Assembly (NCBI GenBank): GCA_963774265.1
Contig: CAVZDU010000001.1
Location: 96,001 to 160,000, forward strand
Reading direction: 5' to 3'
Source: an uncultured Chloroflexia bacterium
Lineage (GTDB): Bacteria; Chloroflexota; Anaerolineae; CG2-30-64-16
Length of the DNA: 64,000 nucleotides
Position 1 is the first letter of the stretch, and every line of letters begins with the position of its first letter. This document shows positions 29,419 through 46,355 of this stretch, piece by piece. A program made the translations under genes and the position numbers. The notes beneath the pieces are model-generated. The model did no database searches, was not told the origin of the DNA, and saw only the letters and a program-made list of their open reading frames with translations.

Positions 29419-30108
29419 ATGGAACTACGAGCTTACTGGGCCGTCATCATGCGGCGTTGGTGGCTGCCGATAGGGCTGGCGCTGCTGGTCGCTGCTCTGG
29501 CGCTGATTGTGCAACGTCCGTGGCAGCCCCGCCCGGTCAGTTACAGCGCGAGTATGCGCTTTAACGTCGGCATCCAGCCGGAACGTATCCCTGGCGTTTA
29601 CACCTATGACCGCTACTACACAATGCTCACATCAGAGTATTTGGTGGACGATTTAGGTGAAATCGTGCGCAGCCAGGTATTCGCAGGGGCAGTCAGTCAA
29701 CGGCTGGCCGATCAGGGGATTACGGTGCCGGCCGGCGCGATCGGCGCCAGCGCGCAGCCCGGCAAGCTCCATCGCATCCTGACCATCAGCATCAACTGGC
29801 CTCACGAGGATGAATTACGAGCCATCGCTAATGCCGTCACTGCGACCCTGACCGACAGCACGGCGGACTTCTTCGGCCAGTTCAGTGCAGACGAAGCGGA
29901 TATCCGCCTGATCGATCCACCGGTCGTGGGCATCGTCGGTCGTCCGGCCCGTGAGCAACTGGACCTGCCTCTGCGCATCCTCTTGGCCCTCGCCGCCGGC
30001 CTGGGACTTGCATTCCTCCTCGACTACCTGGACCGGTCCATTCGGGACCGGGCAGACGTAGAGAAGCTCGGTCTGCCCATCCTGGCAGAAATCCCCCGCG
30101 GCAAATAG
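29419..30108 (+). CDS. Wzz/CpsC-like chain-length determinant
   Basis: MELRAYWAVIMRRWW, two TM helices, LDRSIRDRADVEKLGLPILAEIP. Confidence 0.8.
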   Translation: MELRAYWAVIMRRWWLPIGLALLVAALALIVQRPWQPRPVSYSASMRFNVGIQPERIPGVYTYDRYYTMLTSEYLVDDLGEIVRSQVFAGAVSQRLADQGITVPAGAIGASAQPGKLHRILTISINWPHEDELRAIANAVTATLTDSTADFFGQFSADEADIRLIDPPVVGIVGRPAREQLDLPLRILLALAAGLGLAFLLDYLDRSIRDRADVEKLGLPILAEIPRGK

Positions 30109-30128
30109 CACGGGCGCGCTGCCCGCTG

Positions 30129-30265
30129 CTATCCACAGGCAGGTCGCGCGAATGAAATACTAGATATAGGGGTGGTGGCAGGCGAGAGGCGTAATAGTGC
30201 CTCCAAGGCCGGGTTTATCCACAACGCAAGCCAGTTATACACCGTAAGAGGCCCAATTATCCACA
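30129..30265. promoter_or_regulatory. DnaA-box cluster, probable oriC
   Basis: Perfect TTATCCACA at 30215 and 30257; one-mismatch CTATCCACA at 30129 and TTATACACC at 30235; all in the intergenic gap downstream of dnaA. Confidence 0.8.
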
Positions 30266-30332
30266 ATAGAAACGCCAACACGCCGATCTTGACGACGTGT
30301 TGGCGTACCACAATTGTTTGACGGCGTGGTTG

Positions 30333-31727
30333 TTAGCGCACTCGCACAGGCTCGTACAGCCGATTGCGCAGGCTGCTGACACTTTGCGCAAGTTGCGCGT
30401 CCCCATCCATTTCCCTCGCGATCCGCTCGATCCCATGCATCACGGTGGTATGGTCACGTTGGAGGGCATTCCCGATCTGTTGGAGCGAAGCTCCCACTTC
30501 TTCGCGCATCACGTACATGACCACCTGCCGGGGGAGCGCAATCTTTGCGCTGCGGTTCCGACCGACCAGCTCAGCCAGCGTCACATCGAAGAAATCTGCA
30601 GCAACCCTGAGCACCATCTCCAGGGTCAGTTTGCCCTGCGCGGGGGCCAGGTAAGCCAGAGCGTCTTCTACGACCGCGACGCTGATCGGCCGCTGGAACA
30701 ACTCAGCGTGTGCAATCACCTTGGTCAGCGCACCTTCCAGGTCGCGGATGTTCCGGTGCGCGCGCTGCGCAATGGCCAGCAGCACATCGTCAGGCACGCG
30801 CCTGCCCACCGATGCCGCCTTTGTTTGTAGAATTGCTATCCGCGTCTCCAGATTGGGCGGTTGGATGTCCGTGATCATCCCCCAGGCGAACCGAGTGCGC
30901 AGGCGGTCCTCCAGGGTGGGAATCGCCTGCGGCGCCCGATCACTGGTAAGCACGATCTGCCGGTTTGCGGAATGCAGTGCGTTGAATGTGTGGAAGAATT
31001 CTTCCTGCGTCTGTTCTTTGCCTGCAATGAAGTGGACGTCATCCAGGAGCAATACGTCGGTGTTTCGATACTTGGCGCGGAAACTATCCGTGGAGCCGGA
31101 GCGGATAGCCTCAATCAGATCGTTGGTAAAGATCTCCGATGTAACATAAAGCACGCGTTGTCCGTTTGACTGCACCGACTTGCCGATGGCTTGGAGCAGG
31201 TGGGTCTTGCCCAGGCCGCTGCCGCCATAGATGAACAGCGGGTTGTAGGCGATTCCCGGTCGCTCCGCTACAGCGAAGGCCGACGCATGTGCCATCCGAT
31301 TTGACGGACCGACGATGAACGTCTCGAAACTGTACTGCGAACGCAGACCTGCGCTCTCGACGGCCGGTCGCTCGGCGGGCGCAGGGACGGCAGCCGGCTC
31401 CACCTCAAGCAACGGCGCCGGAGTAGGGTCCGGCCCGTCCTGTGCCGGCGTCGTCTGAATGATGAAGGTGACATCCACCGCATGACCCACGATGCTGGCC
31501 AATGTCCCTTTGATCATACGGCGCAGCCGCACCTGGAGCCAATCCCGGGCATAGGCATTGCTGGCCCCAATGACGAAGGCTCCATCCTCATGCGCCACAC
31601 ACACAGTGTCCCGCACCCAAGTGTCATAGGTGCTCTGGGGCAACTGCAAGCGCAGATGGCTCCGTGCGATCTCCCAAACTTCGCGCGGAGATCGTCCATC
31701 AGGGGCGTCAGGCGCGTTCATACGCAT
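30333..31727 (-). CDS. dnaA: Chromosomal replication initiator DnaA
   Basis: YNPLFIYGGSGLGKTHLL, LLLDDVH, QEEFFHTFN, RDHTTVMH. Confidence 0.98.
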   Translation of the reverse strand: MRMNAPDAPDGRSPREVWEIARSHLRLQLPQSTYDTWVRDTVCVAHEDGAFVIGASNAYARDWLQVRLRRMIKGTLASIVGHAVDVTFIIQTTPAQDGPDPTPAPLLEVEPAAVPAPAERPAVESAGLRSQYSFETFIVGPSNRMAHASAFAVAERPGIAYNPLFIYGGSGLGKTHLLQAIGKSVQSNGQRVLYVTSEIFTNDLIEAIRSGSTDSFRAKYRNTDVLLLDDVHFIAGKEQTQEEFFHTFNALHSANRQIVLTSDRAPQAIPTLEDRLRTRFAWGMITDIQPPNLETRIAILQTKAASVGRRVPDDVLLAIAQRAHRNIRDLEGALTKVIAHAELFQRPISVAVVEDALAYLAPAQGKLTLEMVLRVAADFFDVTLAELVGRNRSAKIALPRQVVMYVMREEVGASLQQIGNALQRDHTTVMHGIERIAREMDGDAQLAQSVSSLRNRLYEPVRVR

Positions 31728-31989
31728 AACTCCAATAACAAGAGCTTAACCCATGACAACGTCACAACGAACAGATCGCTCTGCAACTCATGCCCACAAA
31801 CGGGCAAACGCATCCGCACGCTCGCAAGTGAAGCGAGCGACCACCGCGCAAGAGATCCCGCGCACATCAGACGTCAGTTACGACGGCCGTCATGGCCGTC
31901 TGCGACAGAAGGGGGCCTGCAAGCCAGTGCGAGCGGACTGAGGACGATGCTGCCGAATGCGTGGTCGCGCTGGCTCAGTTGTGGGTGGA

Positions 31990-32018
31990 ATTCTAGCATC
32001 GACGGGTTCCCCCCGCAA
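31990..32018 (-). promoter_or_regulatory. Probable dnaA promoter
   Basis: TTGCGG-17 bp-TAGAAT with extended TG. Confidence 0.55.
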
Positions 32019-32247
32019 GGGCCACTTTGGAGGTAACTGGTTCACCCGTCAATACTTATGTATAACCCATTTCGCGCGCACGGACGTGCTACGCGAGTCC
32101 TAGGGGTAGGGCCGCCCGCGACCACCATTTGGCGCCTCACACGCGGCCCCAAAATTCTCAAACCTTAAATCTTGTGCCTGTTTTTTTCGTTAAGGTTTGT
32201 TATCGTCAACTCACCGTGAGGCACAAAAATCTCCAGGCCAGGCGCCG

Positions 32248-33918
32248 TCACGCGGCCGGTTTGAGCATCGGAATCTTGACACCCATGCGCCTGCGCGGCC
32301 GCAATCGCTTCCGGATAGCCCGCATCGGCGTGACGGGCAATCCCCATGCCGGGATCGGTTGTCAGCACACGTTGCGAGGCGCCGTGCGGCCTCGGGCGTG
32401 CCATCGGCCACGATCACCTGCCCGGCATGCTGGCTGTAACCGATGCCGACGCCGCCGCCATGGTGGAAGCTTACCCAGGTCGCGCCGCCCACGGCGTTGA
32501 TCAACGCGTTCAGGATCGGCCAGTCCGAGATGGCGTCCGACCCGTCGCGCATCCCCTCGGTTTCCCGGTTTGGACTCGCCACGCTGCCTGCGTCCAGATG
32601 ATCGCGGCCGATCACGATCGGCGCCTGACACCCGTCCATCCGCCACGGCCTGGTTGAACGCCAGCCCGGCACGCGCACGTTCTCCGTACTTCAGCCAACA
32701 AATACGCGCTGGCAGCCCTTGCCAGGCGATGCGCTCCTGCGCCATCGTGATCCAGCCGGCGCAGATGTTCGTTCTCGGGGAACAGGTCCAGGATGATCCG
32801 GTCCGTTTCGTAGATGTCCTGGGGATCGCCGCTCAGCGCGACCCAACGGAACGGCCCGGAACCCTCGCAGAAGAGCGGCCTGATGAACGCGGGAACGAAG
32901 CCCGGATAGTCGAATGCATCCTTCACCCCTGCATCATAGGCGCGCTGGCGCAGGTTGTTGCCGTAGTCGAACACGACGCTGCCTGCCCGCTGGAAGGCCA
33001 ACATGGCCCGGACGTGCGCCGCCATGCTCTCCATTGCGCGTGCCTGGTAGCCCGCCGGGTCCGCCGCCCGTATGCGACGGCGGCTTGCTCCAGCGTCATC
33101 CCCGTGGGGATGTAGCCCAGCAGCGGGTCGTGCGCGCTGGTCTGGTCCGTCACCACATCGGGCGTGACCCCGCGTGCCACCAGCTCGGGCAGGATTTCGG
33201 CCGCGTTGCCCAGCAAGCCCGATCGATTTGGCCTCACCCCGTCGCCACCGCCTCCTCGACCCACGTCATGGCCTCTTCGAGGTTGTCCGTTGCGACGTCC
33301 AGGTAGCGGTGCTGCAGCCGGCGGTCGATGCGCCACTGGTCCACCTCGACCACGAGCGCCACGCCGCCGTTCATCGTCACAGCCAGCGGCTGCGCGCCGC
33401 CCATCTCGCCCAGCCCCGCGGTCAAGCACGAATCTTGCCCTTCAGCGTGCCCCAGCCCTGCTGCCGCGCCAGGCTCCCAAATGTCTCGTACGTGCCTTGC
33501 AAGGATGCCCTGCGTGCCGATGTAGATCCAGCTGCCCGCGGTCATCTGGCCGAACATGATCAGGCCCTCGGCTTCCCAACGGTCGAAGTTCTCCTGCGTG
33601 GCCCAGTGCGGCACGATGTTCGAGTTGGCGATCAGCACGCGAGGCGCATCTTCGTGGGTGCGGAAGACGGCCACCGGCTTGCCCGACTGGACCAGCAGCG
33701 TTTCGTCCGGCTCCAGGTTGCGCAGGCTCTCCAGGATCGCATCGAAGCAGGCCCAGTTGCGCGCCGCCCGGCCCCGTCCGCCATAGACGATCAGGTCATC
33801 CGGGAACGCGGCCACCTCCGGGATCCAGGTTGTTCTGGATCATGCGGTAGGCGGCTTCGATCAGCCAGTTCTTGCAGGTCAGCTTCGTCCCACGCGGGGC
33901 GCGGATGATGCGGCTCAT
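32248..33918 (-). CDS. hutU: Urocanate hydratase (multiple frameshifts)
   Basis: [72 protein letters not shown] spread over several frames. Confidence 0.93.
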
Positions 33919-33955
33919 GGCAATCCTCGATTGGTGCTCGTTCGCGTCACAGGCG

Positions 33956-35388
33956 TTACAGATCAAAGTACAGTCTGCACTTCGTACGGGTGCGGGCGTT
34001 CGAGCACCGCGTAGTGTTCCTTCAACTTGGCCTTGATCCAGTCCAGGATCGTCTCCTCGTCGAACACATCGCCGGCCAGCAGGAAGTCCGTAGTCGGCCT
34101 GCAGCGCCTCGCACGCCTTCGCCGAGCGACGTCGGCAGCGCCTTGATCTCGGCCCGACGCTCAGGCTCCCACTTGAAGATGTTCTCGTCGATCGGTCCGA
34201 AGCCGTGCTCGGTGGGGTCGATCTTCCGCTGCACGCCGTCGATCCCCGCCATCAGCATCGCGGCCATCGCCAGGTATGGGTTGCAGGTGGCGTCGGGCGG
34301 CCGGAACTCCATGCGGACGGCCTCCGGCTGGGTGGCGTACTTCGGCACCCGGATTGCCGCCGAGCGATTGCCGGTCGAGAAGAAGCAGTTGACCGGCGCC
34401 TCGTAGCCCGGCACCAGCCGGCGATACGAGTTGGTGGACGGATTGGTGAGGGCCAGCAGCGCCGGCGCGTGGAGCAGCAGCCCGCCAATGTAGTGGAGCG
34501 CCGTCTCGCTGAGCAGGCTGTAACCCCTGCCGCGTCGTAGAACTGGTTGACCCCACGCTTGAAGACGTGCTGGTGGAAGTGCATGCCGTTGCCCGCTTCA
34601 CCGAACAGCGGCTTGGGCATGAAGGTCACGGCCTGGCCGCGACTGCCGCGCGACCATCTTGCGACACGTACTTGATCGTCTGGACCGCGTCCGCGGCCGC
34701 CAGCAGCCCCATCAGCGGCGTCTCGATCTCGCACTGCCCCGGCCCGCCGACCTCGTGATGATGGTACTTGACCGGCACGCGCATCCCTTCAAGGGTGGTG
34801 ACGATGCGGGTCCGCAGAGGCGCGAGCTGATCGCGCGGCGGGATCGCATGATAGCCGCCATGCAAGCGGCACGTAGTGCCCGGCCGCCTTCAGGGCTGTG
34901 CCAGTCGGCCTCCGCCGAATCCACCCGGTATGAGGCGACATTGACTGCCGTTGTCGTAGGCCACGTTATCGAAGACGTAGAACTCGAACTCGGGTCCCCA
35001 CCGGCTTTCGTCGCGCGATGCCTGTGTCGCGCAGGTAGGCCTCTGCCCGCTGGGCGATCACGCGCGGATCCCGGAAGTAGAGGGCCTTGGTGTCGGCCTC
35101 CACGACGCTGCAGATGAAGCTCAGGGTCGGGACTTCCCAGAAAGGATCGACGACGCCGGTGGACAGGTCGGGGATGAGCACCATGTCGCCCGACTTGACG
35201 CTCCGCAGGCCCACGCTCGAGCCGTCAAAGCCGATGCCCGCGGTCATCAGGTTCGGCGTGAACTCGCTGGCCGAGAGCGTCACATGGTGCCAGCGGCCCC
35301 AAAGGTCGCTGAACTTGAGGTCGATCATGCGGATGCCGCTCTCACGCACGAACGCGGCCGCGACATCGAAGTTCTTGAACTCTGGCAC
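33956..35388 (-). CDS. glnA: Type I glutamine synthetase (multiple frameshifts)
   Basis: [59 protein letters not shown]. Confidence 0.92.
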
Positions 35389-35428
35389 AACAACACACTC
35401 CTTTGTGCAGGCTCTGCGCACGGCTTAC

Positions 35429-35457
35429 ATTATCGGGTAGGTAGCGAGTAAGCGCAA
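35429..35457 (-). promoter_or_regulatory. Probable glnA-hutU promoter
   Basis: TTGCGC-17 bp-GATAAT. Confidence 0.5.
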
Positions 35458-35483
35458 AACAGCGCTTCATAAGCGACAACAGC

Positions 35484-35514
35484 AAGGCCCTCGTCATGGT
35501 CTGACGGGGGCTTT
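35484..35514. terminator. Hairpin/terminator at the left edge of the island
   Basis: AAGGCCCTCGTCA-TGGTC-TGACGGGGGCTTT. Confidence 0.65.
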
Positions 35515-35850
35515 CGTTGCGTCATTCAGGGCGCCAGGATGCCCACAGAGGCCACTGTACGGCGATCAGGGCGTTTGATACAGTGTGCTGATGGAACCTT
35601 CCTATCATGCAGGGCGTGGCGCGCGTGAGGCAGTGTGGAAGGACGGAGGGAACCCGTTTCCGCGCTTCGACTTCTCGGTGGCGCAGATGCACAACGGGAA
35701 GCTGACATGGGAGGGGCAAATGTGCGGGGCGTAGGCGGTGGAGTATGCCTCAGCGAAACTGCAGGTTGATCTGAGTCAGCGGCTGGTGTACTCATACCGA
35801 AGAGCGAGCGAGCCGGAGGACCGGCCCTGATCGCCTTCCCGTTGGGGTGG
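35484..35850 (-). ncRNA. Candidate structured non-coding RNA
   Basis: Upstream TTGACA-17-TACCAT promoter, terminal hairpin, 12-bp and 10-bp long-range complementarities, no convincing ORF. Confidence 0.35.
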
Positions 35851-35855
35851 GCCGC

Positions 35856-35884
35856 ATGGTAGGCGAACCTAGCTCCATTGTCAA
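35856..35884 (-). promoter_or_regulatory. Sigma70-type promoter downstream of the HNH chimera
   Basis: TTGACA-17 bp-TACCAT. Confidence 0.6.
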
Positions 35885-35950
35885 GACGTTCGGAGATCGT
35901 ACCGAGCCAACTTACCGCAAGACAGGAAAGCTAGTAATTCACAGTACACT

Positions 35951-36943
35951 CTAGGCTATGTTTGCACCTTTTGAACGATTGCACTGCGCGCAGAGGAGTT
36001 GGATATTGCGTGCTGTATTGCTTCCGCCCTTGGAGACAGGGATGATATGATCATACTCTAGATTCGCTTGGCTTCCGCATTTTGCACAATGGCCTCTATC
36101 ACGTCGCCAGACGAACATCTTGACATCATCGGATATGGCTTGTCTTTCATATGCTAGGGGGTTCCGCATGTCGCCGAATATCCCTACATCATCGGGTATG
36201 GCTTGTCTTTCATATACTGGGGGGGCACCCATTTCGTCGAATAACCCTACATCATCGGGTATGGCTTGTCTTTCACATACTGGGGCGTTCCACCTTTCGC
36301 CGAACACGGCTAACGCCGCACTCGCGGTTGCTGATGTAATCACTCCATCCGCGTAGACGATGGCGTATTGGTGGACTTTCTTCAGGGCAAGCAGAGCCTC
36401 TCCAGGGCATCCATTGCTTCGTTCGGCCAGCAAATAAGAGGCTTCAACGGTGATCGCAACTCCCAGCCGGCTTGCTGATGAGGTTATTATCGTTTGCATA
36501 TCAGCCGTGCTGTAGGGATCAAGATTGAAGGCATACATCAGGTTGCCAAGTCTGTCAAGGACTTTCGATGGCCCTGAAGTTGTGCCAACTACGGTGAAAT
36601 GAGGAAGCTTCAAGCCAATCCTGCGGGCTGAAGAACCCTTCCCAACAGAAATCTCAATGCGGAATTCCTCCATAGCCCGAACCAGAAGCTCCAATATTGG
36701 TCTCCGCATTGTAACGTAGCCAGCCTGTACCAGGTAGAATCTTGCCCAGTCAACACTATTGCTGAACCGAGATGCACCACTGGAAATGGTGCCTGTGAGT
36801 TCGGCGTCGGAGATGCGGAGGCTCTCAATGATGATATCCTTCACCTCCGAAGGATGACCAGACCCGCCAAGCTTGTTTAGGGCGTCAATGATCGGACCGA
36901 AGAACTTGACGAACTTGGGGCCACCTTTGTTCGCTCTAGCCAC
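35951..36943 (-). CDS. Chimeric Mrr_N winged helix + RuvB C-terminal fragment + 3x21-aa repeat + HNH endonuclease
   Basis: FSNSVDWARFYLVQAGY (Mrr_N); AMEEFRIEISVGKGSSARRIGLKLPHFTVVGTT (RuvB); VWRRDRGHCAKCG...EYDHIIPVSKGGSNTARNIQLLCAQCN (HNH). Confidence 0.8.
   Translation of the reverse strand: MARANKGGPKFVKFFGPIIDALNKLGGSGHPSEVKDIIIESLRISDAELTGTISSGASRFSNSVDWARFYLVQAGYVTMRRPILELLVRAMEEFRIEISVGKGSSARRIGLKLPHFTVVGTTSGPSKVLDRLGNLMYAFNLDPYSTADMQTIITSSASRLGVAITVEASYLLAERSNGCPGEALLALKKVHQYAIVYADGVITSATASAALAVFGERWNAPVCERQAIPDDVGLFDEMGAPPVYERQAIPDDVGIFGDMRNPLAYERQAISDDVKMFVWRRDRGHCAKCGSQANLEYDHIIPVSKGGSNTARNIQLLCAQCNRSKGANIA
36123..36311. repeat. Three tandem 63-bp repeats inside the HNH chimera
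   Basis: ACATCATCGGRTATGGCTTGTCTTTCA begins at 36123, 36186 and 36249 and encodes ERQAI(P/S)DDV. Confidence 0.9.
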
Positions 36944-36982
36944 TTGTCTGCTCCTCTGAGGGGCATGAACTGCTCTGGCAGG

Positions 36983-38198
36983 CTAAGCATTGGTTAGTAA
37001 CTTGAAATCGTGCTCGCTCACGCGATGTGTTGCCTGCACAAACCAAGCCCATGAGTTGTTCAGGTTCTTGCCCTGAAATGCGTCAAGTATGGCCCGAAGA
37101 TCGGCGTTAACGACCACTGGTTCCTGAAGGTATAGCGTCGGGTTGACGACGGAGACCACCCAGGGGAAGTCGTCGGGATGGGCGACTTTCGGATGCCGCT
37201 TCAGCTCAGGTGCGGTCGCTACACAAGCGTGAGCGATGACGCCTTTGGTGGTGGCATAAAAACAGGATCCAGTCGCCGGGTTTAATGTGTTTGCGACCTG
37301 GCGTACGGTGACCGAAGGCATAGATATGTTCTTCGCCCACCAGTTGTTGAACGCACTCCTCAGCAGTTCCCTCCTCGTCTGACTTAACAGGTGTGAGCCA
37401 ATAGACTGGGGCGGAGTTCAGCAACTCAGTGACTTCTTGAGAGACCACGGGCGAAATGACTGGTGCTGAGACCTGAGGAGCAGGAAACAAGATGTTAGCA
37501 ACGGGTGCAATTTGAGATTGCGGCGCAGTAGTCCCTTCTAGCGGCTGTGACGCTAGAAGGCTCGTAATGAGATCGACAACAGGATCAATACGTGGGCCTG
37601 AAGGGCGCAGTAGCGCCAGCACATCTTGATGGCTTACGTGATAGGCGTCCATCATATCGGCAAGCGCCAGAAGAGACTCGATAGAGAGAATGCGAAGCTG
37701 ATCCGTGCGCTTCTCCGCGACGATGGCGTTATCGAGTTGTTGTAAACCAGCATCTGGCCTGCCAACGAGGTACAGCCCCAAGGCAGTATCCCAATTCGGA
37801 ATCTTCTTTTCCGAGATCAGCGCATCCACGTAGCCGATCAGCGTCTTGGTCTTGATTGCGAAGACATCGCTGGTCTTTACCTCTACAACGATATGAAAAC
37901 CGGTGGGCGAACGCCAATATCCGTCAAAACCGATGTGTGCAGTGGTTCCTTGATAACGTCCGAAGGTGACGTCGAAACCCATAAATCTTCCAAGGTGATT
38001 GACGAGGTCCTGAAGAGCTCTGGCATAGACGTCGCCTGACTTAAGCAAGCACTCATCAATATGGTCCCGAATCACCCCTACTTGCTTGGCATTCTCGGCC
38101 AAAAAATCACGGAAACGCTCGCGGGGAGTGTCCGGACCAGGCGCGTCGTCAAGTTTGCCGACAAGTGCGAGAATCTGACTTAGGCCGATGCTTGCCAT
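36983..38198 (-). CDS. PD-(D/E)xK restriction-like nuclease fused to a C-terminal EVE/PUA-like domain (frameshift near 37260)
   Basis: GFDGYW...VVEVKTS nuclease motif; YWLTPVK...IKPGDWI/CFYATTKGVIAHA...VSEHDF EVE-like part completed by ORF 36983..37321. Confidence 0.7.
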
Positions 38199-39103
38199 CT
38201 CATTCGACCTCCAGGGAAAGTTGCGTTAAGCGTGATCATCCCGGAGCCCAGGTCAACGATCCCAGTTATTGTGTAATCGGGTGCCTCTAACTCGCTAGTA
38301 GTGGCCATCAAGTCCAATATCCCAGCTTCTTTGTCGAACTCTCCATAGATAGAGTAATCTGGCGAGATACGGATCATCCGAGACTAGATCAAGCATCGCA
38401 AATCCGCCTTCCAGATCAATCTCTACCACTTAGTGAGTAGTCTGGGGCGTCAACAAAAGCAGACACCAGCTTAAGTTCGACACTGCCTGAGTGTATCGAC
38501 CCACGTGCCAGACCCCGTGTACATCGGTCCTTCCGAATAGGGCGTTGCATGAAGAACGATCTGTTTAGCTGATTGCCCCGGCACAGTCTTCTTCAGCTTC
38601 CTACCGGATGCGTGGGATCCCATCCTCGGCTCAGACGGTACTGAAGTCAGGGGAGACGCCTCGGAAGTCTTTTTCACGCCAGATCCACATTGGCTGCAGA
38701 ATCTGGCTGAGCTTGCTACTTCAGCGCCGCACTGCTTGCAGACCTGCTTTGCTGCCGTCTCTTGTTCGTCTGAGCGTAGCCACTCGATCAGGGTCATCTC
38801 CTGGTTGGCCAATGCGGTGTTTATTTGCAGCAGCGTCATCAAAACGGCACGGCACTGGGTAGCCTTCCATTGGTTTCCAAAGATAGGGCGGAGGTACCTC
38901 CTTTCTGCTTCGCCCACTTCGGCAGATAATCCCGCCATCTTTTCCTTCCTCGACCTGACCAGCGCAAGCAACTGCTCCGCCTCAGTCCTGCTCGTCCACT
39001 CTGGAACACTTAGCGTGACAACGCGGTTTTCGCCCGGTTGCGGAGTCCTAATACCAAGGACCCGTTCGATTCGGGCGAAGTACTCATCCTCCACACTGGA
39101 CAC
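38180..39103 (-). CDS. Helical + zinc-ribbon + acidic beta-repeat protein (about 3 frameshifts at 38380-38500)
   Basis: CKQC...CSQC; repeats GPMYTGSG, APDYSLSG, SPDYSIYG, APDYTITG continue across frames into ORF 38180..38377. Confidence 0.6.
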
Positions 39104-39143
39104 TTGAATTCTCCTTCATCGTAGCTGACAGCGGCTGTGTGCG

Positions 39144-39204
39144 ATGCTTTGTGTTGCCGGAAACAAATGCTACCACAGGCAGCCATGACCGCAAAGGGGA
39201 GACG
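39144..39204 (-). repeat. Promoter-bearing direct repeat, copy 1
   Basis: About 80% identical to 40121..40182; TTGCGG-16-TAGCAT with extended TG. Confidence 0.8.
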
Positions 39205-39341
39205 ATTGTCCGAGGTTCAGCGGGCCGTGACAATAGGAGCGGTCAATCGACTGGCGGAATCGGGCGATATATTGGATCAGGTGGCAAATTCGCTGTGGCG
39301 GGATGGCGCAGCCGGAGACTGGTGCCGACGGAGTGAGGCAG

Positions 39342-39419
39342 ACGGAACGGCAATGGGTTAAGCCGCGCGTGGTCCGAGCGCAGCGAGGCGAAGTCGTCCG
39401 GTGCAACGCGTGGTGAGCC
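39342..39419 (-). mobile_element. Degenerate integron attC site
   Basis: GGCTCAC-CACGCGTTGCACCGGACG...CCTCGCTGCGCTCGG...GCC-GTTCCGT, 12 nt after the NYN stop; its left core matches GTTAGCCCG upstream of the gene. Confidence 0.65.
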
Positions 39420-39431
39420 CGCCCTCACGAT

Positions 39432-39974
39432 TTACACGGCAAGTAGCCTTAAGTATGGATTCAAAGAGATGAACTTGTCACATGAATGCTTCACCTCTTG
39501 AGAGGCATGTTCCCAGAACACAACTTCGACTCGGTATCCATCGTCACGTAATCGCTCAATGGCAGGAACGAAATCGCCATCCCCTGCAACCAGCGTTATT
39601 GTATCTTCGTTCTGATTCACACGCTTGTAAGCATCAGCGACCATAGCCGTCACAATCCCCGTATCTATCTTTTTTTCACGATTAGCCACATTACGATCAA
39701 CTATAATGGGCTCGAACCCTGCACGCTCCGCCATCATCCAGAGAATATCGTTTTTGGGTGGGCGCGACCCAAACAATGCCGCACGCCTAATGTTTTCAGG
39801 CTTCTCTCCAGCAACGAACGCGAGTAATTTGCCAAAAGCGATTCTGTAGCTAACATCTAGGATTCTGTTGTACATTGCATCCCAGATGCTCAATGCGAGT
39901 CCGTTCTCAACGGCGCTAACACGCTGACCTTCGATAAACACATTGGAGTTATCGACATAAACGTATTCAGCCAG
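39432..39974 (-). CDS. NYN-domain (LabA/DUF88) PIN-like ribonuclease, gene cassette
   Basis: Frame extends to a CTG at 39974 after GGAG, giving AEYVYVDNSNVF; EKKIDT and LVAGDGDFVP motifs. Confidence 0.85.
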   Translation of the reverse strand: MAEYVYVDNSNVFIEGQRVSAVENGLALSIWDAMYNRILDVSYRIAFGKLLAFVAGEKPENIRRAALFGSRPPKNDILWMMAERAGFEPIIVDRNVANREKKIDTGIVTAMVADAYKRVNQNEDTITLVAGDGDFVPAIERLRDDGYRVEVVFWEHASQEVKHSCDKFISLNPYLRLLAV

Positions 39975-40003
39975 TAAACTCTCCGATGTCCCAATAGGCG
40001 AAA

Positions 40004-40045
40004 CGGGCTAACAAGTCAGAATCCAGCGAACTGCTGGATATGTTA
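40004..40045 (-). mobile_element. attI-like recombination site or cassette 5' junction
   Basis: ATATCCAGCAGTTCGCTGGATTCTGACTT-GTTAGCCCG: GTTRRRY-like core preceded by a short dyad, with no attC hairpin. Confidence 0.45.
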
Positions 40046-40120
40046 CTCCGGCCACATCATCTGGAGCCGCATCTCGCGGGGTCAACGTGCCAACAGGAAG
40101 CTCTGCGGCCAACTCATACA

Positions 40121-40182
40121 ATACTTTGTGTTGCCTGAAACAAACGCTACCACAAACGGCTATCACTGCAAAACAGGAGACG
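40121..40182 (-). repeat. Promoter-bearing direct repeat, copy 2
   Basis: About 80% identical to 39144..39204; TTGCAG-16-TAGCGT. Confidence 0.8.
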
Positions 40183-40184
40183 GT

Positions 40185-40538
40185 TCACAGCAGGCTGTCC
40201 GCCCGCCCTTGCTTGGGGCGCTGCTCCCTGGCATCCGCTTGAGGCAGTGTGGCGTCACGGCAGGCAGCGTCACGTTTGCGTCGGCGAGGCTCAGCAGCGC
40301 GTCGGCGTACCTCATATCGCAAATGACACCGCTGGCATGGACTCGCAAGGTTGGCGGGATCGGAGTTTTGAGGATCGTGGTCCAGGTGGGCGACGGTCAG
40401 GATAGCCCGGCTTCCGGTTTCGGGGTGGGGCTGGAGGTTCGCGGCCCCGCACCATTCACAACGCCAGCCAGCCTATTTCCGGACAGCGAAGCTGATCTGC
40501 TTCCAGTTGGGCGGTTGGCGGTTGGCGTGAAACGGCAT
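40185..40538 (-). pseudogene. Phage-type HNH endonuclease with in-frame TAG at codon 22
   Basis: Hand translation MPFHANRQPPNWKQISFAVRK*AGWRCEWCGAANLQPHPETGSRAILTVAHLDHDPQNSDPANLASPCQRCHLRYE; absent from the ORF track. Confidence 0.8.
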
Positions 40539-40703
40539 TACTTCATCGACCCGCTTCACCGCGGCAGCAGCCCAACGTGCAACATCCCGCACTCCCGGCA
40601 GGTGTTGTAGCGGTACTCCCAGCGCGTCCCCGTGGATTCCTCACGTTTCTTGACCCTGGCTCGCAGCGGGCGTCTTGCACCTCGTCGGGCAAGCGCGCCG
40701 GTC

Positions 40704-42260
40704 CTAATCGGTGAGCGCGGCTGTCACCGAGTTGCCGATCTCACCGCTGACAAGCAGGTCGTAGACGGCATCCATGTGCGGATACATCACTTCGTCGCGC
40801 TCGATGAATGGCACGCGTCCACGCACGAGTTCGTAAGCGGCCGCAGTTCCGCAGCCCAGTTGGGCCTCGGGCATCACCTTCCGCCTGAAGTCGATGCCCT
40901 GGCTCGCAGCCAACAACTCGATCGCCACAATTCGCCCGACGTTGCCGATGATCTGCCGCGCCCGGCGCCCGGCAATCGGTCCGTTGGATACATGATCCTC
41001 CCAGTTGGCCGATGTGGGGATCGTATCCGCGCTGGCCGGATGAACCAGCATCTTGTTCTCGGATGCGAGCGCCGCCGCGGTGTACTGAACCAGCATGAAC
41101 CCGGAGTTCAGCCCGCCCTGTTCGGTCAGAAAGTCGGGCAGGGTCTGGCGATTGCTGGAGCCATCCACCAGCCGCGTCAGGCGCCGCTCCGACATGTTGC
41201 CCAGCTCGGTGATCCCCAGCGCGAGATAGTCAAACGCGATGGCCAGCGGCTCCCCGTGGAAGTTGCCCCCGCTGATGGCAATCGGCGAACCATCGGATTC
41301 AAAGAAGATGAGGGGATTATCGGTCGCACTGTTCAGCTCGATTTCAACCACCCACCGCGTATACTTGATTGCATCGTGGCACGCGCCATGCACCTGGGGG
41401 ATGCAGCGCAAGGTGTAAGCATCTTGCACGTCCGGGTGGTCCGGCGGGCGGACAAAAGTGGAGCCTTTGAGCAACCGCCGCATCAACGCGGCCGCATCGA
41501 TCTGCCTGGGGTGCGGTCTGGCAAGGTGAAGCCGTGCGTCCAACGCCCACAGCGTGCCATGCAACGCCTCCAGGCTCAAGCCACCGGCCACATCAGCGCA
41601 TAAGGCCACATTTTCAGCCTCGACCACCGCCAGGCAGCCGAGTGCGGCCATGAGCGCGGTGCCGTTCGTCAACGCCAGGCCCTCTTTCGCCTCCAATGTG
41701 ACGGGGCCGAGCCCGGCCTGGCGCAGCGCCTCGTCACCCTTCATGCGCCGTCCCTTGTACTCTGCTTCGCCGAGACCAATCAGGACCAGTGCGATGTGGG
41801 CCAGGGGCGCCAGGTCACCCGACGCGCCCAGGGAACCCTGCACCGGCACGATGGGATGAACCCCGCGCTCGAGCATAGCGAGCAGCAGGCGAAGCGTTTC
41901 AAGACGGATGCCCGAGTGACCCTTGGCCAGCGTGTTCGCGCGAATCAGCATCATTGCGCGCACGACCGCGGTGTCAAAAGGCCGGCCCACACCCACCGCA
42001 TGGCTCATGACGATGTTCCGTTGTAAAGCGCGCACCTGGTCTGGGGGAATCACCCGGTCCTTGAACGCCCCGAAGCCCGTTGTAATGCCGTAAATGATCC
42101 GGTCCTCGGCCACGAACTGCTCGACCGCTGTGCGCGCGGCCTGCACCTTCGCCTCAGCGCCGGCCGTCAGCTTAACCGTTAGCTCGTCCGCCTTTGCGTG
42201 GGCCGCCAGCAGCACATCTTCAATCGACAGGCTTTCACCGTCCAGTTCAAGGTGATACAA
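40704..42260 (-). CDS. hutH: Histidine ammonia-lyase
   Basis: YGITTGFG, MSH specificity residues, GSLGASGDLAPLAH (MIO); TTG start after AAGGAGG. Confidence 0.95.
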   Translation of the reverse strand: MYHLELDGESLSIEDVLLAAHAKADELTVKLTAGAEAKVQAARTAVEQFVAEDRIIYGITTGFGAFKDRVIPPDQVRALQRNIVMSHAVGVGRPFDTAVVRAMMLIRANTLAKGHSGIRLETLRLLLAMLERGVHPIVPVQGSLGASGDLAPLAHIALVLIGLGEAEYKGRRMKGDEALRQAGLGPVTLEAKEGLALTNGTALMAALGCLAVVEAENVALCADVAGGLSLEALHGTLWALDARLHLARPHPRQIDAAALMRRLLKGSTFVRPPDHPDVQDAYTLRCIPQVHGACHDAIKYTRWVVEIELNSATDNPLIFFESDGSPIAISGGNFHGEPLAIAFDYLALGITELGNMSERRLTRLVDGSSNRQTLPDFLTEQGGLNSGFMLVQYTAAALASENKMLVHPASADTIPTSANWEDHVSNGPIAGRRARQIIGNVGRIVAIELLAASQGIDFRRKVMPEAQLGCGTAAAYELVRGRVPFIERDEVMYPHMDAVYDLLVSGEIGNSVTAALTD

Positions 42261-42289
42261 CGCAGCCCTCCTTTGGACTGTTTTGGCGA

Positions 42290-42742
42290 TCAAGGGGCGG
42301 CTATCTGCCGTGCACGCTCGATCATGGCGCGTGTTGCCGGCAGAAGCGGATAAGCATCGAGATCATCGGCGGAAACCCAGCACAACTCGGCCGCATCGTC
42401 GCCTACCACTAAATCGCCCCCCGAATAGGTCGCCAGGTAGTCAATCACCACGTAATGATAGCGGATTCTGCCATCATCGTCACGTTGGATCGGCTCAAAA
42501 ACACCCAGCAGCGGACCGACCGCCACTTCGATGCCGCACTCCTCCCGCACCTCGCGGCGCACGGCCTCTTCCAGCTTCTCGCCAACGTCGACAAGACCAC
42601 CAGGCAGCGCCCACGAGCCTTGCGCAGGCGGCTGTCCGCGGCGCTCCAACAACACCGCGCCATCGCGCCACACCACCGCACCTACGCCCACCATCGGGCG
42701 CCGCGGGTACAACCGCTCAGAGCGATCCTCGGCCATCGTCAT
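42290..42742 (-). CDS. Nudix hydrolase
   Basis: Nudix box GGLVDVGEKLEEAVRREVREECG. Confidence 0.9.
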   Translation of the reverse strand: MTMAEDRSERLYPRRPMVGVGAVVWRDGAVLLERRGQPPAQGSWALPGGLVDVGEKLEEAVRREVREECGIEVAVGPLLGVFEPIQRDDDGRIRYHYVVIDYLATYSGGDLVVGDDAAELCWVSADDLDAYPLLPATRAMIERARQIAAP

Positions 42743-42752
42743 TCGACCTCGT

Positions 42753-42779
42753 AAAAAAGCCCCTGCTTGCGCAGGGGCT
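42753..42779 (-). terminator. Terminator after ferredoxin
   Basis: AGCCCCTGC...GCAGGGGCT followed by a T-run on the minus strand. Confidence 0.7.
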
Positions 42780-42803
42780 CCGGATAGTCCGCGATCAGAC
42801 CGC

Positions 42804-43082
42804 CTACTTCTTTGCGGAATACCCCGGGCCTTCCTTGAAAAAGGCCGCATTGAGCTCGATGGAACCCACATACTGCGGGAACTCAACCTTGAGATCCTCT
42901 TCCGGTCGGATTGCGTCCACCGGGCATTCAGGCACGCATGCGCCGCAGTCGATGCAGGTGTCCGGGTCGATGTAGAACCAGGGCCACTGATCCTCGGGTT
43001 CACCGGGGATGATGCATTCCACCGGGCAGACCTCTACGCAGGCGCCGTCGCGAATGCACAGGTCAAAGATCACATGAGTCAT
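42804..43082 (-). CDS. Dicluster (7Fe/8Fe) ferredoxin
   Basis: CIRDGACVEVCP and CIDCGACVPECP; AGGAGGAG RBS. Confidence 0.92.
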   Translation of the reverse strand: MTHVIFDLCIRDGACVEVCPVECIIPGEPEDQWPWFYIDPDTCIDCGACVPECPVDAIRPEEDLKVEFPQYVGSIELNAAFFKEGPGYSAKK

Positions 43083-43160
43083 GGCGCTCCTCCTGGGTGT
43101 GAGCTTGTGAGTTGGAATTGCCGAAATAGAAGATTGTGCTCTTTGTGGCAGAGCAAGGCC

Positions 43161-43189
43161 ATTCTAAAACGGCAAGCGAAAGATGTCAA
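43161..43189 (-). promoter_or_regulatory. Ferredoxin promoter
   Basis: TTGACA-17 bp-TAGAAT. Confidence 0.7.
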
Positions 43190-43854
43190 CTGGCGGCTAC
43201 TTCGGCCAGCCTCTCCGGATTGCGGATCGTGATCCGCTTGCGGCCGATTGTGATCAAACCCTGCGCTTTCATGTCGTTCAACACCTGGGTTGCCGTCTCC
43301 CGGTAAGTGCCGATCGTCTCGGCCAGATCCTGGTGCGTCATCCCGAGAATATCGGCCGAGTTGCCTTCGGCCGACAACCGCAGCAGCAGCGACGCCAGGC
43401 GCGCCGGGATACCCTTAAAGGCCATGTCCTCAAGCCGCGACTCAGCGTCGCTCAGCCGCCGGCCGGTGATTTCCAGCATCCGCAAGCCGACCAGCGGTTT
43501 GCCCAGAATCAAGCGCTCCAGGTCAGTCCGGCTCATCACCAGGATCAGGCAATCGTCCAGCGCTTCTGCAAACGCGTTGTGCATCTGCTGGCCCAACAAG
43601 GCCATTTCGCCAAAGAGCGTCCCGGGTCCCAGCGTCGCGATGACCAGTTTTTTGCCCTCGGGCGAGATGCGATATAGCTGCACCTTTCCCTGCTTGATCA
43701 GGAACAGGACTTCGCTCACGTCTTCCGGCTGATAGAAAACCCGGCCGCGCGGGACGTTGGTGATGGTCGTCATGCGGTCCAGTTCCGCCATGTCGCGATC
43801 AGACAGGTCCCGGAACAGGTCCACATCCGACAGATAGCCGAGCTTGTCATCCAT
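43186..43854 (-). CDS. Crp/Fnr-family transcriptional regulator
   Basis: cNMP-binding fold (GTLFGEMAL) and [20 protein letters not shown]. Confidence 0.92.
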
Positions 43855-43980
43855 GCTGGCCTCCGCAGATAACAGTTGGCACCGTAGTTACTCCGCCATT
43901 ATAAGGGGAGCAGGGCCAAATCACAAGACGAAACAGATCCGGCCATTTCCATTTCGCGCACCCCGTGTATAATGTCACCC

Positions 43981-45399
43981 ATGAATGAGCCATCCTCTGC
44001 CTGGCAGCCACTTCTCCGCAGGCTTGATGCCCTGCTTCTGGCCATCCTGGTGATCGCCCGCATTCGCATCGACTCGCTGGCCGAGGCCGCTGTGCTGCCC
44101 CTCCGTCAGGCCGATATCGCCAGGCATGCGTTGCTCGGCCGGATCTTGTCCCCCGATGCCATGAACTTGCTGGCTCAGCAGCAACTCGTCGACCCCCTTG
44201 CCCTGCTGATCATTGTTGCGGCCTTAGGCTGCCTGCTGGCATATCTGCTCGTCGACGAGTTCCTCCGTGGCGAGCTTGCGCGCCACCGCGCCAAACTGAC
44301 GCTCATCTGGCTGATTATCCTGCTGACAGTCTTCTTGCCCAGCCTCAAACTCGCCCTCTTGCGCCAGGCCAGCGGGCCGGCCAGTTACAGCCATGACGGC
44401 GGCGTGATTCAAACCGAGGCCGCGATCGACTATCTTCTCGCGGGCCGCAACCCCTACATCGAAGACTATCTGAACACACCCATGGCCGAATGGGGCATCA
44501 ACGAGTTCCGCACCGCGCTGTACCACTACCCGTACTTGCCCTGGACCTTTCTCTTCTCCGCACCATTCAAACTCGCGTCCGAGGCCGCTCTCGGGTGGTA
44601 CGATCAGCGCTTCGTCTACCTCCTGTTGTTTGCATTGACCCTGTTGCTGCTGCCGCGGCTTGCAGGAACACGCACGCGCAGCCTGCTGCTCGTCATGTTG
44701 GTCGGCCTGAACCCTCTCATGGGCACTGACCTGATCTACGGCCAAAACGACAGCTTCGTCTTCGCATGGATCGTGCTCAGCCTGTGGTTGTGGGCGCGGG
44801 GACGCTCGAACGCATCATCTGGCACACCGTGGCGCATCACGTCTGCACTCGCCTTCGGCCTGGCCTGCGCCAGCAAGCCAACGGCGTGGTTCTTTGCACC
44901 GTTCTACCTGTTGTGGATCGTCGGCAGCGAGACCGCGAGCGTCGGAGCCTGGATTCGCAAAGCTGTGCGCCTGGGTTGGCCGGCCTTGGCGGCCGCACTG
45001 CTGGTCATCGGCCCATATTTCATCTGGAGCCCTGGCGCGATGTTCGATGATGTGTGGAAATGGTCCGCAGGCACATCGGAGACCGGCTATCAGATCTGGG
45101 GCTGGGGGGCCTCGAATCTCGTCCTGGCGTTCGGGTGGGTCAAGAGCCGATTCGACATGTGGCCCTTCTGGATAGGAGAGCTTCTTCTGGCGGGACCGCT
45201 CATGGGGGCTTTGCTGTGGCGCCAGTGGCAAGAAAACCGGCTCGGCCGCGCCTTGTGGAGCTACGGGGTCTTCCTTTTGGCCTTCTTCTTCGTCTCGCGC
45301 TTCTTGAACGAGAACTACCTGAGTTACATCCTTGCCTTCCTGGTTCTGGGCGCGCTGATCCGGGAAGATGCCGGCGCCCACACAGCAAATGAGGGCTGA
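43981..45399 (+). CDS. GT-C (GT87/DUF2029-like) membrane glycosyltransferase
   Basis: Polytopic; HDGG...LLAGRNPY, YPYLP, GQND, ACASK motifs. Confidence 0.7.
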   Translation: MNEPSSAWQPLLRRLDALLLAILVIARIRIDSLAEAAVLPLRQADIARHALLGRILSPDAMNLLAQQQLVDPLALLIIVAALGCLLAYLLVDEFLRGELARHRAKLTLIWLIILLTVFLPSLKLALLRQASGPASYSHDGGVIQTEAAIDYLLAGRNPYIEDYLNTPMAEWGINEFRTALYHYPYLPWTFLFSAPFKLASEAALGWYDQRFVYLLLFALTLLLLPRLAGTRTRSLLLVMLVGLNPLMGTDLIYGQNDSFVFAWIVLSLWLWARGRSNASSGTPWRITSALAFGLACASKPTAWFFAPFYLLWIVGSETASVGAWIRKAVRLGWPALAAALLVIGPYFIWSPGAMFDDVWKWSAGTSETGYQIWGWGASNLVLAFGWVKSRFDMWPFWIGELLLAGPLMGALLWRQWQENRLGRALWSYGVFLLAFFFVSRFLNENYLSYILAFLVLGALIREDAGAHTANEG

Positions 45400-45458
45400 T
45401 GCACTCAGGGGTGCGCGTCAGCCCTCATTGTTAACCTGACTGGACCGGGCTTCTTGCC

Positions 45459-46355
45459 CTACCTGTCTCTATTGCGTGGCGCGAGCTGCTTCAGCGTGGT
45501 CTGCACATCGGCCAGCTGGTCTCGCAGCGTATCTGAGTAGATCCGCAGGAAGTGATCCGTATGAGCAGCCCAGGTAGCGCCCCTGTTCGGGTCGGCCAGC
45601 ACCAGGGCCTGCGACAGCGCGTGCAGCGTGGCCGCCGCGGCAGTCCACGAAGGCAGAATCCCGATCGTGTCAACCGGCGCATACAAGACGTGCTGCGCGA
45701 CGGAGGCAATCGCGTTCGTGGCTGAGCCGGCAATCGCGACGGTTTTTGCACCCACATCGCGCGCCACCTTCAGGATCACAGCAACCCCCGGGGTCATCGT
45801 GGTCATGCCAATGCAAAGCACGGCGTCCTTAGAGGTGAGCGTGGTAGACATGGCCGCCTGCCCTGCCAATTCCGATGGAACCGGGTGGGCCGCATAACCA
45901 AGGCTGACCAGTCGACCAACGAACGCTTCGCACAGAAAGGAGAGGTTGCCTTCGCCTGCGACAAAGATGCGCTGCGCACTCTGAAGCACCTTGACGATGC
46001 TCTCAACCGTCTCCTCATCGAAGTGCAGCAGGGAGTAGTCGAGGTTGTTGCGGTCCTGCATCAGGTTGCGGCGAAAGACCTGGGTGGGCGAGTTGTCGCC
46101 CTCAGGCGGCTCATACACCGCCTGCAGGTCGCGCTTGACCTCATCCTGAACTTCGTTGATCAGTTCAGGGAAGCCAGGGTAGCCAAGGCGTTGTGCGAAG
46201 CGAACGACCAGCGCCGTATCGACGTCAACGAGACGGGCGATCTCCGCGGCGGTCATAAATGCCGCGTCCTGGTAGTGGTTCAGCAAATAATCGGCGATCC
46301 GCCGATATCCGGGGGAGAATTGGCCATATAGGGCGCGAATACCTTCTCTGAACAC
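45459..46355 (-). CDS. MurR/RpiR-family transcriptional regulator
   Basis: RRIADYLL, VVRFAQRLGYPGFPEL, SIS domain; GTG start after GGAG. Confidence 0.9.
   Translation of the reverse strand: MFREGIRALYGQFSPGYRRIADYLLNHYQDAAFMTAAEIARLVDVDTALVVRFAQRLGYPGFPELINEVQDEVKRDLQAVYEPPEGDNSPTQVFRRNLMQDRNNLDYSLLHFDEETVESIVKVLQSAQRIFVAGEGNLSFLCEAFVGRLVSLGYAAHPVPSELAGQAAMSTTLTSKDAVLCIGMTTMTPGVAVILKVARDVGAKTVAIAGSATNAIASVAQHVLYAPVDTIGILPSWTAAAATLHALSQALVLADPNRGATWAAHTDHFLRIYSDTLRDQLADVQTTLKQLAPRNRDR

Follow-up and report, generated by a model that had tools for sequence, protein, structure and literature searches.

A chimeric reading frame joins truncated Mrr and RuvB-like parts to an intact HNH nuclease, probably through one recent illegitimate recombination

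The window analysed here is a 64,000-nt stretch of DNA (forward-strand positions 96,001–160,000 of contig CAVZDU010000001.1, assembly GCA_963774265.1). On its minus strand lies a reading frame for a 330-residue protein in which the N-terminal piece of an Mrr restriction enzyme runs into a fragment of a RuvB-like AAA+ protein and then into an HNH nuclease. The two halves of this chimera have separate parentages; they meet at an exact breakpoint that truncates the folds on both of its sides, form a junction that is unique, and leave the HNH domain intact. We consider that the gene is probably genuine and lineage-specific, that it was made by a single recent illegitimate recombination and that what it carries of the ATPase is a dead remnant.

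Domain content of the chimeric protein

The chimeric open reading frame (ORF), its leader and its parts are as follows.

36943..35951, minus strand: chimeric ORF, 330 residues, GTG start, stop codon at 35951–35953, open over all 993 nt
36944..36984, minus strand: leader with GAGGAG ribosome-binding site, part of the mrr-derived block
36713..36943, minus strand: mrr-derived 5' piece, codons 1–77, Mrr_N without its C-terminal wing, ending ...WARFYLVQAGYV
36302..36712, minus strand: RuvB-like AAA+ remnant, residues 78–214, starting just past Walker B and taking in the sensor-1 region and the lid
36608..36661, minus strand: β-hairpin of the RuvB N domain, residues 95–112, intact
36123..36304, minus strand: 63-nt tandem repeat, 2.9 copies, 84% matches, at the linker/HNH boundary
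35954..36154, minus strand: C-terminal Cys4 HNH nuclease cassette, residues 264–330, catalytic and zinc residues all present

The GAGGAG lies 7 nt 5' of the GTG at 36943. Pfam places Mrr_N at residues 11–79 (E = 4.9e-13, profile positions 1–69 of 87), RuvB_N at residues 79–124 (E = 1e-9, profile positions 96–141 of 159), the RuvB lid AAA_lid_4 at residues 144–214 (E = 3.6e-12) and HNH (PF01844) at residues 286–327 (E = 1.3e-12, 48.1 bits against a cut-off of 21.4). Residues 79–213 match positions 114–249 of the 330 in the NCBIfam RuvB equivalog model with 89.6 bits, under its cut-off of 282; a second NCBIfam RuvB score is also under its cut-off (80.1 against 299 bits). In a sequence search of the PDB, RuvB chains align to residues 79/82–213/215 [7x7p residues 100–233, T. 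thermophilus 1hqc residues 102–239], and RuvB chains are the top Foldseek match (E = 3e-11) of an AlphaFold2 model of the chimera. A first-pass annotation made from the letters of the sequence had read the protein as Mrr_N, a RuvB fragment and an HNH nuclease; the matches above confirm this architecture, and the middle segment does align to RuvB.

Both Walker A and Walker B are missing from the chimera, as had been noticed: the RuvB match begins past the Walker B strand in the Pfam and PDB alignments, and in the family alignment the columns of the RuvB Walker motifs are occupied by Mrr residues. The lid has no sensor-2 arginine (RGTPR) and reads NGCPG instead. Pfam matches neither the RuvB_C winged helix (PF05491), whose place is occupied by the HNH domain, nor Mrr_cat (PF04471), which is present in all 64 relatives of the N-terminus described below. 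The elements that the annotation had listed as kept are indeed there. Residues 95–112 (RIEISVGKGSSARRIGLKL) form a β-hairpin in the AlphaFold2 model and align with the hairpin of RuvB domain N, the lid spans residues 144–214, and the four cysteines of the HNH domain (C286, C289, C318 and C321) are present together with D298-H299, N313 and N322, all of them invariant in alignment A1. Mrr_N had been called without qualification; it is present, but truncated and without its wing.

The AlphaFold2 confidence is high over the AAA+ remnant; for a predicted model this reflects the alignment and is not proof of stability. Within the Mrr_N part, residues 51–71 and 73–77 fall below 50 in the predicted local distance difference test (pLDDT). 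HMMER also aligns residues 65–82 (nt ~36698–36751, DWARFYLVQAGYVTMRRP) with the C-terminal winged helix of the 7x7p RuvB (DVLEPYLIQQGYI-MRTP), at a non-significant score of −2.6, which is probably a generic winged-helix likeness.

Two parents and one breakpoint

The whole-protein search returned 1272 proteins, and the relatives described here are the 119 listed besides the chimera itself. A separate search for Mrr_N, with residues 1–80 against 1.84 billion representatives, gave 732 matches, 150 of them listed. Residues 1–82 have 64 matches other than the chimera, every one a canonical Mrr (Mrr_N plus Mrr_cat, ~290 residues), and residues 1–77 are up to 69–71% identical to Mrr enzymes. All 150 listed Mrr_N matches end at query residues 67–78, mostly at 75–78. 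For residues ~79–330, RuvB_N and HNH occur together in 118 of the 119 listed relatives; identity over residues 79–330 is 44–56% in the closest 50 listed and 32–56% across all 119 (best, 56%), and the listed C-terminal relatives span only ~76% of the query. The GC content of third codon positions is 0.62 in one half and 0.50 in the other, a difference that is suggestive only, 77 codons being too few.

Alignment A2 places the join at nt 36713/36712, between V77 and T78. The chimera is Mrr-like up to ...AGYV(77) (...WARFYLVQAGYV), where the Mrr relatives continue into the wing with DASIRGVWSL... Identity to the RuvB-like-HNH proteins starts at (T)MRRPILELL (consensus xMRKQxLEVL), and the relatives carry Walker A and B just upstream of this point. 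The first-pass annotation was right in setting the join just past Walker B, but the site is 36713/36712 and not ~36720. On these alignments the join interrupts both folds, leaving Mrr_N minus its wing and an AAA+ core minus everything through Walker B.

No other protein combines the two halves, whether among the listed relatives of the C-terminal part (119), the Mrr relatives (64) or the listed Mrr_N representatives (150), and a degenerate pattern of 13 residues spanning the join has no match in JGI metagenome contigs. Homologs with the same junction, which the annotation had proposed as a check, are absent from the listed relatives, the listed Mrr_N representatives and the JGI contigs. A metagenome scan with alignment A1 gave, among the matches listed, more distant relatives only. 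Forty related genomes, seven of them of the same genus, hold only canonical RuvB (37–44% identical to residues 79–214) and unrelated HNH proteins, and the chimeric gene is in none of the seven. Elsewhere in the genome of the window there is neither another close mrr nor another RuvB-like-HNH gene, and a reciprocal chimera is likewise absent. The missing halves have therefore been lost, which rules out a join between two of the genome's own loci.

Among species-representative genomes, the closest sequence to the mrr piece is 46–49% identical and the closest to the RuvB-like part 47% at best; at this distance the 3' breakpoint within the RuvB-like parent, and any microhomology at it, cannot be defined. 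mrr does not adjoin a RuvB-like-HNH gene in any of 94 loci (~11 with a full RuvB-like-HNH gene), and neither of them adjoins the family of the chimera's upstream gene in the two loci available for it. These loci therefore do not distinguish a deletion between neighbours from a replacement of the 5' half. In two public runs only a small share of the stretch is represented (0.08 and 0.06), and none of their contigs spans the junction or the RuvB-like/HNH part.

The RuvB-like AAA+/HNH parent family

The family of the second parent comprises proteins P0002–P0120 and loci L015–L022 and L108–L128, and its entries are named in the sources 'HNH endonuclease' or 'Holliday junction DNA helicase RuvB' (for example P0002, P0014 and L015). 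Walker A (G-x-x-G-x-G-K) is kept, with the lysine in 106 of the 119 listed relatives. The Walker B acidic pair has D in 52, E in 45 and Q in 12 at its first position, then E in 61 and Q in 45, so that glutamine stands at the Walker B glutamate position in about four in ten (45 of 119). The sensor-2 arginine column is occupied by G (51), L (29) or S (16) in at least 96 of the 119, arginine not being among the three commonest residues. Since SNGCPG is the consensus of the whole family, it predates the fusion; the annotation had described it as a change from SRGTPR, and the motif is there as stated, but the change is not specific to this gene. The domain-N hairpin is strongly conserved (G in 115, A in 112 and R in 113 of 119); in canonical RuvB it is the RuvA-binding element (PMC4677358). 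The column of residue 79 has L in 67 and M in 25, methionine being the second commonest. The family has no RuvB C-terminal winged helix, a domain that bears a DNA-contacting hairpin in RuvB (PMC10071043), and has a highly conserved HNH tail in its place.

The N-terminal extensions of the family vary and include CxxC repeats, Sel1/TPR and DnaJ. Every metagenome locus with room on its contig has the full ATPase half. Thirteen short database entries have no match to the ATPase families, and three of these are partial calls (P0039 is truncated where its contig stops; P0056 and P0069 both match a gene of full length). In nine loci with full family members there is no conserved partner gene and no mrr; the neighbours are PLD, HNH_2, HepT, Fic and housekeeping genes. 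At one locus (L016) the family member lies directly upstream of canonical ruvB. We found no description of a RuvB-like AAA+/HNH family in the full-text literature, a body in which most subscription journals are outside coverage. This large parent family, in which a full RuvB-like AAA+ domain has had its DNA-binding C-terminal domain swapped for HNH, looks more worthwhile than the chimera itself.

The HNH tail has a wider distribution than the family. These ~65 residues, 58–86% identical and always C-terminal, occur in ORFs of 72–684 residues at 160 loci (drawn from L015–L094 and L107–L186) in many phyla, behind N-terminal parts that are mutually unrelated. Among these ORFs, 103 have 170 residues or more and an upstream end that is not truncated at a contig edge. 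Domain scans of 60 of the 103 gave matches to HNH families only in 49, and the other 11 have Sel1, ankyrin/MORN, CarD_TRCF_RID or RuvB-like domains. The tail behaves as a promiscuous C-terminal nuclease cassette, and because it is joined to so many modules, exchange of the N-terminus is a normal course of evolution around it. The exchange in the chimera differs from the usual ones in that it cuts through a domain.

A triplicated linker

The 63-nt repeat triplicates a peptide of the linker/HNH boundary (..ERQAIPDDV..), and the copies read FGERWNAPVCERQAIPDDVGL, FDEMGAPPVYERQAIPDDVGI and FGDMRNPLAYERQAISDDVKM in the protein; this repeat had been missed in the first-pass annotation. The copies vary mostly beyond a conserved core of ~30 nt, a pattern that selection, gene conversion or chance may have produced. 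In none of the 119 listed relatives does the linker motif occur more than once. Residues 221–229 and 231–263 of the linker are below pLDDT 50 and are modelled as disordered. From this comparison the triplication appears to be a second rearrangement, unique to the chimeric gene.

Origin and age of the fusion

In its simplest version the event would have been an in-frame deletion from an mrr gene to a downstream RuvB-like AAA+/HNH gene, set within a horizontally acquired island of defence type of ~5.2 kb, and it would have placed codons 1–77 of mrr, behind the ribosome-binding site of mrr, in front of the final ~252 codons of its partner. A contig of 151 nt from metagenome run X2 matches 36713–36834 with two differences; at 36713, precisely where codon 77 ends, it parts from the window. 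Its loose end, translated by hand, reads D-A-S-T-R-G-V-W-S-L, which is the Mrr wing. As this contig runs on as Mrr past codon 77, there is elsewhere an intact mrr of ~98% DNA identity. Another contig of X2 matches 36901–36984 and diverges upstream of 36984, which limits the mrr-derived block, ribosome-binding site included, to ~272 nt.

Of 50 positions with a conservation of 90% or more in the family, the retained part keeps 48 (family members mismatch at a median of 2% of them, 90th percentile 8%). The fusion, judged from these comparisons, looks recent. The retained part shows no decay, which fits youth, though continued selection fits too, and which does not demonstrate selection for the new architecture. 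The fallback offered by the first-pass annotation, in which mrr and a ruvB-HNH gene were recently fused by deletion, is supported by the separate full-length families, the unique junction, the cut folds and the intact mrr of X2.

Several observations weigh against an accident of recent date. The recency depends on the single X2 contig of 151 nt, which is of low depth. The ORF is open over its 993 nt behind a good ribosome-binding site, and the HNH domain and the conserved family positions are undamaged, as they would also be under ongoing selection. The three linker copies are 81–84% alike, in frame, and share a conserved ERQAI(P/S)DDV core, a pattern that hints at a period of constraint on this part of the gene at least. 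Among the ten short family entries other than the three partial calls, two (P0007 and P0008) begin at the equivalent of M79, so that N-terminally short forms of the family might recur. Indel errors lie near the chimera in the assembly, and its fine detail is not beyond doubt.

The inferred product and alternative explanations

With neither a P-loop nor Walker B, the product should be unable to bind or hydrolyse ATP, and with only two of its five core strands left, the AAA+ fold is unlikely to form a stable core or ring. What the AAA+ remnant retains is the hairpin, the strand of sensor 1 and one more strand; HNH is the only complete domain, behind a winged helix that is wingless. Such a product would be at most an ungated, weakly targeted HNH nuclease and is more probably an unstable by-product on the way to loss. 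Its architecture, without a match in any database searched, is a singleton with the marks of accident.

The most serious competitor is a functional neo-fusion, in which Mrr_N and the RuvB hairpin and lid remnants dock to DNA, RuvA or junctions, or oligomerise, and so target the HNH nuclease. Much of the protein would suit such a role: the ORF is intact with its ribosome-binding site, the hairpin that binds RuvA in canonical RuvB (PMC4677358) is kept here and conserved in the family, the HNH domain and 48 of the 50 conserved positions are retained, the HNH tail is naturally paired with many N-terminal modules, and a complete Mrr_N on an AAA+ motor occurs naturally in the McrB-like proteins P0192 and P0245. 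Intactness of the ORF counts for little, however, because the event appears to be very recent. The junction has no second example in any of the searches, the folds are cut in mid-domain and not at domain borders, model confidence is low in the Mrr_N part (residues 51–71 and 73–77 below pLDDT 50), and the gene is missing from all seven relatives of the same genus. We regard a neo-fusion as unlikely. The proposal of the first-pass annotation, that a RuvB fragment was reused for oligomerisation or as a RuvA- or junction-sensing module, is unsupported: the architecture is conserved in no other sequence, only two of five core strands would remain, and the sensor-2 change is older than the fusion. 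A wider form of the idea would make the chimera a new working member of a polymorphic conflict family. Its HNH tail would routinely be re-fitted with new N-terminal sensors, whether or not a RuvB-like switch, binding ATP but hydrolysing it poorly, is also present; Mrr_N would be the newly grafted sensor, and hairpin plus lid would still dock to RuvA or branched DNA. We think this distinctly doubtful; if it were true, the parent family would be an undescribed ATP-gated nuclease acting at RuvA-bound or branched DNA.

There are two further explanations. An assembly or consensus artefact, through a chimeric read or a mis-join in this long-read metagenome assembly, would agree with the consensus errors of the region, where the glutamine-synthetase-like and hutU-like genes are split over several frames against one frame in a short-read relative, and with a genome that is 84% complete with 5.65% contamination. 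Yet the errors nearby are frame shifts, one of them pinned to a single base, and none is a join on the kilobase scale; the mrr block amounts to only 272 nt within a contig of 1.5 Mb, with host genes colinear on either side. Neither parent occurs a second time in the genome to feed a mis-join, and the parents have no common sequence that could collapse an assembly. We hold an artefact to be very improbable. The Mrr_N part might also be irrelevant if translation began at M79 of an N-truncated RuvB-like-HNH protein driven by a captured mrr promoter and leader. Methionine is the second commonest residue of this family column (M in 25 and L in 67 of the 119 listed), and P0008 (M) and P0007 (V) begin at the equivalent position. 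Against this, no Shine-Dalgarno-like sequence precedes the ATG at 36709–36707, whereas the GTG at 36943 has its GAGGAG; three of the 13 short entries represent only part of a longer gene, and the product would still be without three strands of the AAA+ core. A start at M79 we regard as highly improbable.

The explanation that we prefer remains a single, recent illegitimate recombination. The chimera reveals no new junction-sensing nuclease; it is a case, caught in the act, of illegitimate recombination building new domain combinations in defence islands. For annotation it is a trap as well, since a pipeline could name it RuvB, Mrr or HNH endonuclease.

Comparison with known systems

With the RuvB-like-HNH family the chimera shares the hairpin, the sensor-1 region, the SNGCPG lid, the ERQxIPDxVK linker motif and the Cys4 HNH domain. 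The family differs in having a complete AAA+ N domain, often with N-terminal CxxC, Sel1/TPR or DnaJ elements, whereas the chimera alone has 77 Mrr residues at its N-terminus and a triplicated linker. The N-terminus is common to the chimera and the Mrr type IV restriction endonucleases, but the chimera lacks their PD-(D/E)xK Mrr_cat domain and their wing. Canonical RuvB (1hqc, 7x7p and 7pbl) has in common with the chimera the post-Walker-B part of domain N, the hairpin and the lid, and unlike it possesses Walker A and B, the sensor-2 arginine and the C-terminal winged helix; the host's own RuvB is 38% identical to residues 79–214 of the chimera. The McrB-like proteins P0192 and P0245 resemble the chimera in that a single chain contains both an Mrr_N reader and an AAA+ domain. 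Their Mrr_N (profile positions 1–84 and 3–83 of 87) and AAA_5 domains are complete, in contrast to those of the chimera, and they have no HNH domain. One of the two also contains EVE, and Mrr_N on an AAA+ motor is an established whole-domain design.

The island and its surroundings

The chimeric gene lies in an insertion of low GC content between hutH and a glutamine-synthetase-like gene. The spacing of these two genes is 65–140 bp in genomes of the same genus (G007, G004 and G006) and ~5.3 kb in the window. GC content is 0.48–0.59 within the insertion against 0.60–0.70 outside. Its genes (NYN, zinc-ribbon, EVE-family and chimera) are all on the minus strand. The insertion and the other genes that it contains are:

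35430..40680 (approximate), no strand: low-GC insertion of ~5.2 kb between hutH and the glutamine-synthetase-like gene
39432..39941, minus strand: NYN-domain gene
38471..39103, minus strand: gene for a zinc-ribbon protein
36983..38198, minus strand: upstream neighbour of the chimera, of a large family of ~375–410 residues that a few sources call EVE-domain protein, split into 38198..37206 and 37321..36983

The split of the upstream neighbour is due to a 1-nt frameshift, a single extra base, near 37258–37266; a contig of a second run, X1, that is 98–99% identical lacks one base at 37265. The family of this gene has 1154 matches, and the ORF 37321..36983 is 65% identical to residues 309–406 of P0337. 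Its D..EVK motif can be read as PD-(D/E)xK-like, and an Atlas search gave weak restriction-enzyme leads only. The flanking glutamine-synthetase-like gene (33234–35421, minus strand) is in several frames and hutU (urocanase-like) looks alike, whereas in the short-read genome G006 the glutamine-synthetase-like gene is in a single frame; hutH (40704–42293) is intact. These broken frames are likely to be indel errors of the long-read consensus, real pseudogenes being the alternative, and because the consensus carries such errors single frameshifts here should not be over-read.

Searches of the island for further signals added little. PADLOC, run for known defence systems, gave generic HNH and NYN matches only, Rfam has no RNA family in the island at E values up to 0.1, and no tRNA or integration signal was found in 30000–46000. 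No convincing direct repeats flank the island, the alignment with the empty site is too diverged to fix its exact ends, and a promoter and terminator scan was uninformative. Within the island, a 52-nt direct repeat (39144–39195 and 40121–40172, 83% identical) stands just upstream of the zinc-ribbon and NYN genes, and it may be a shared regulatory site or the remnant of a duplication.

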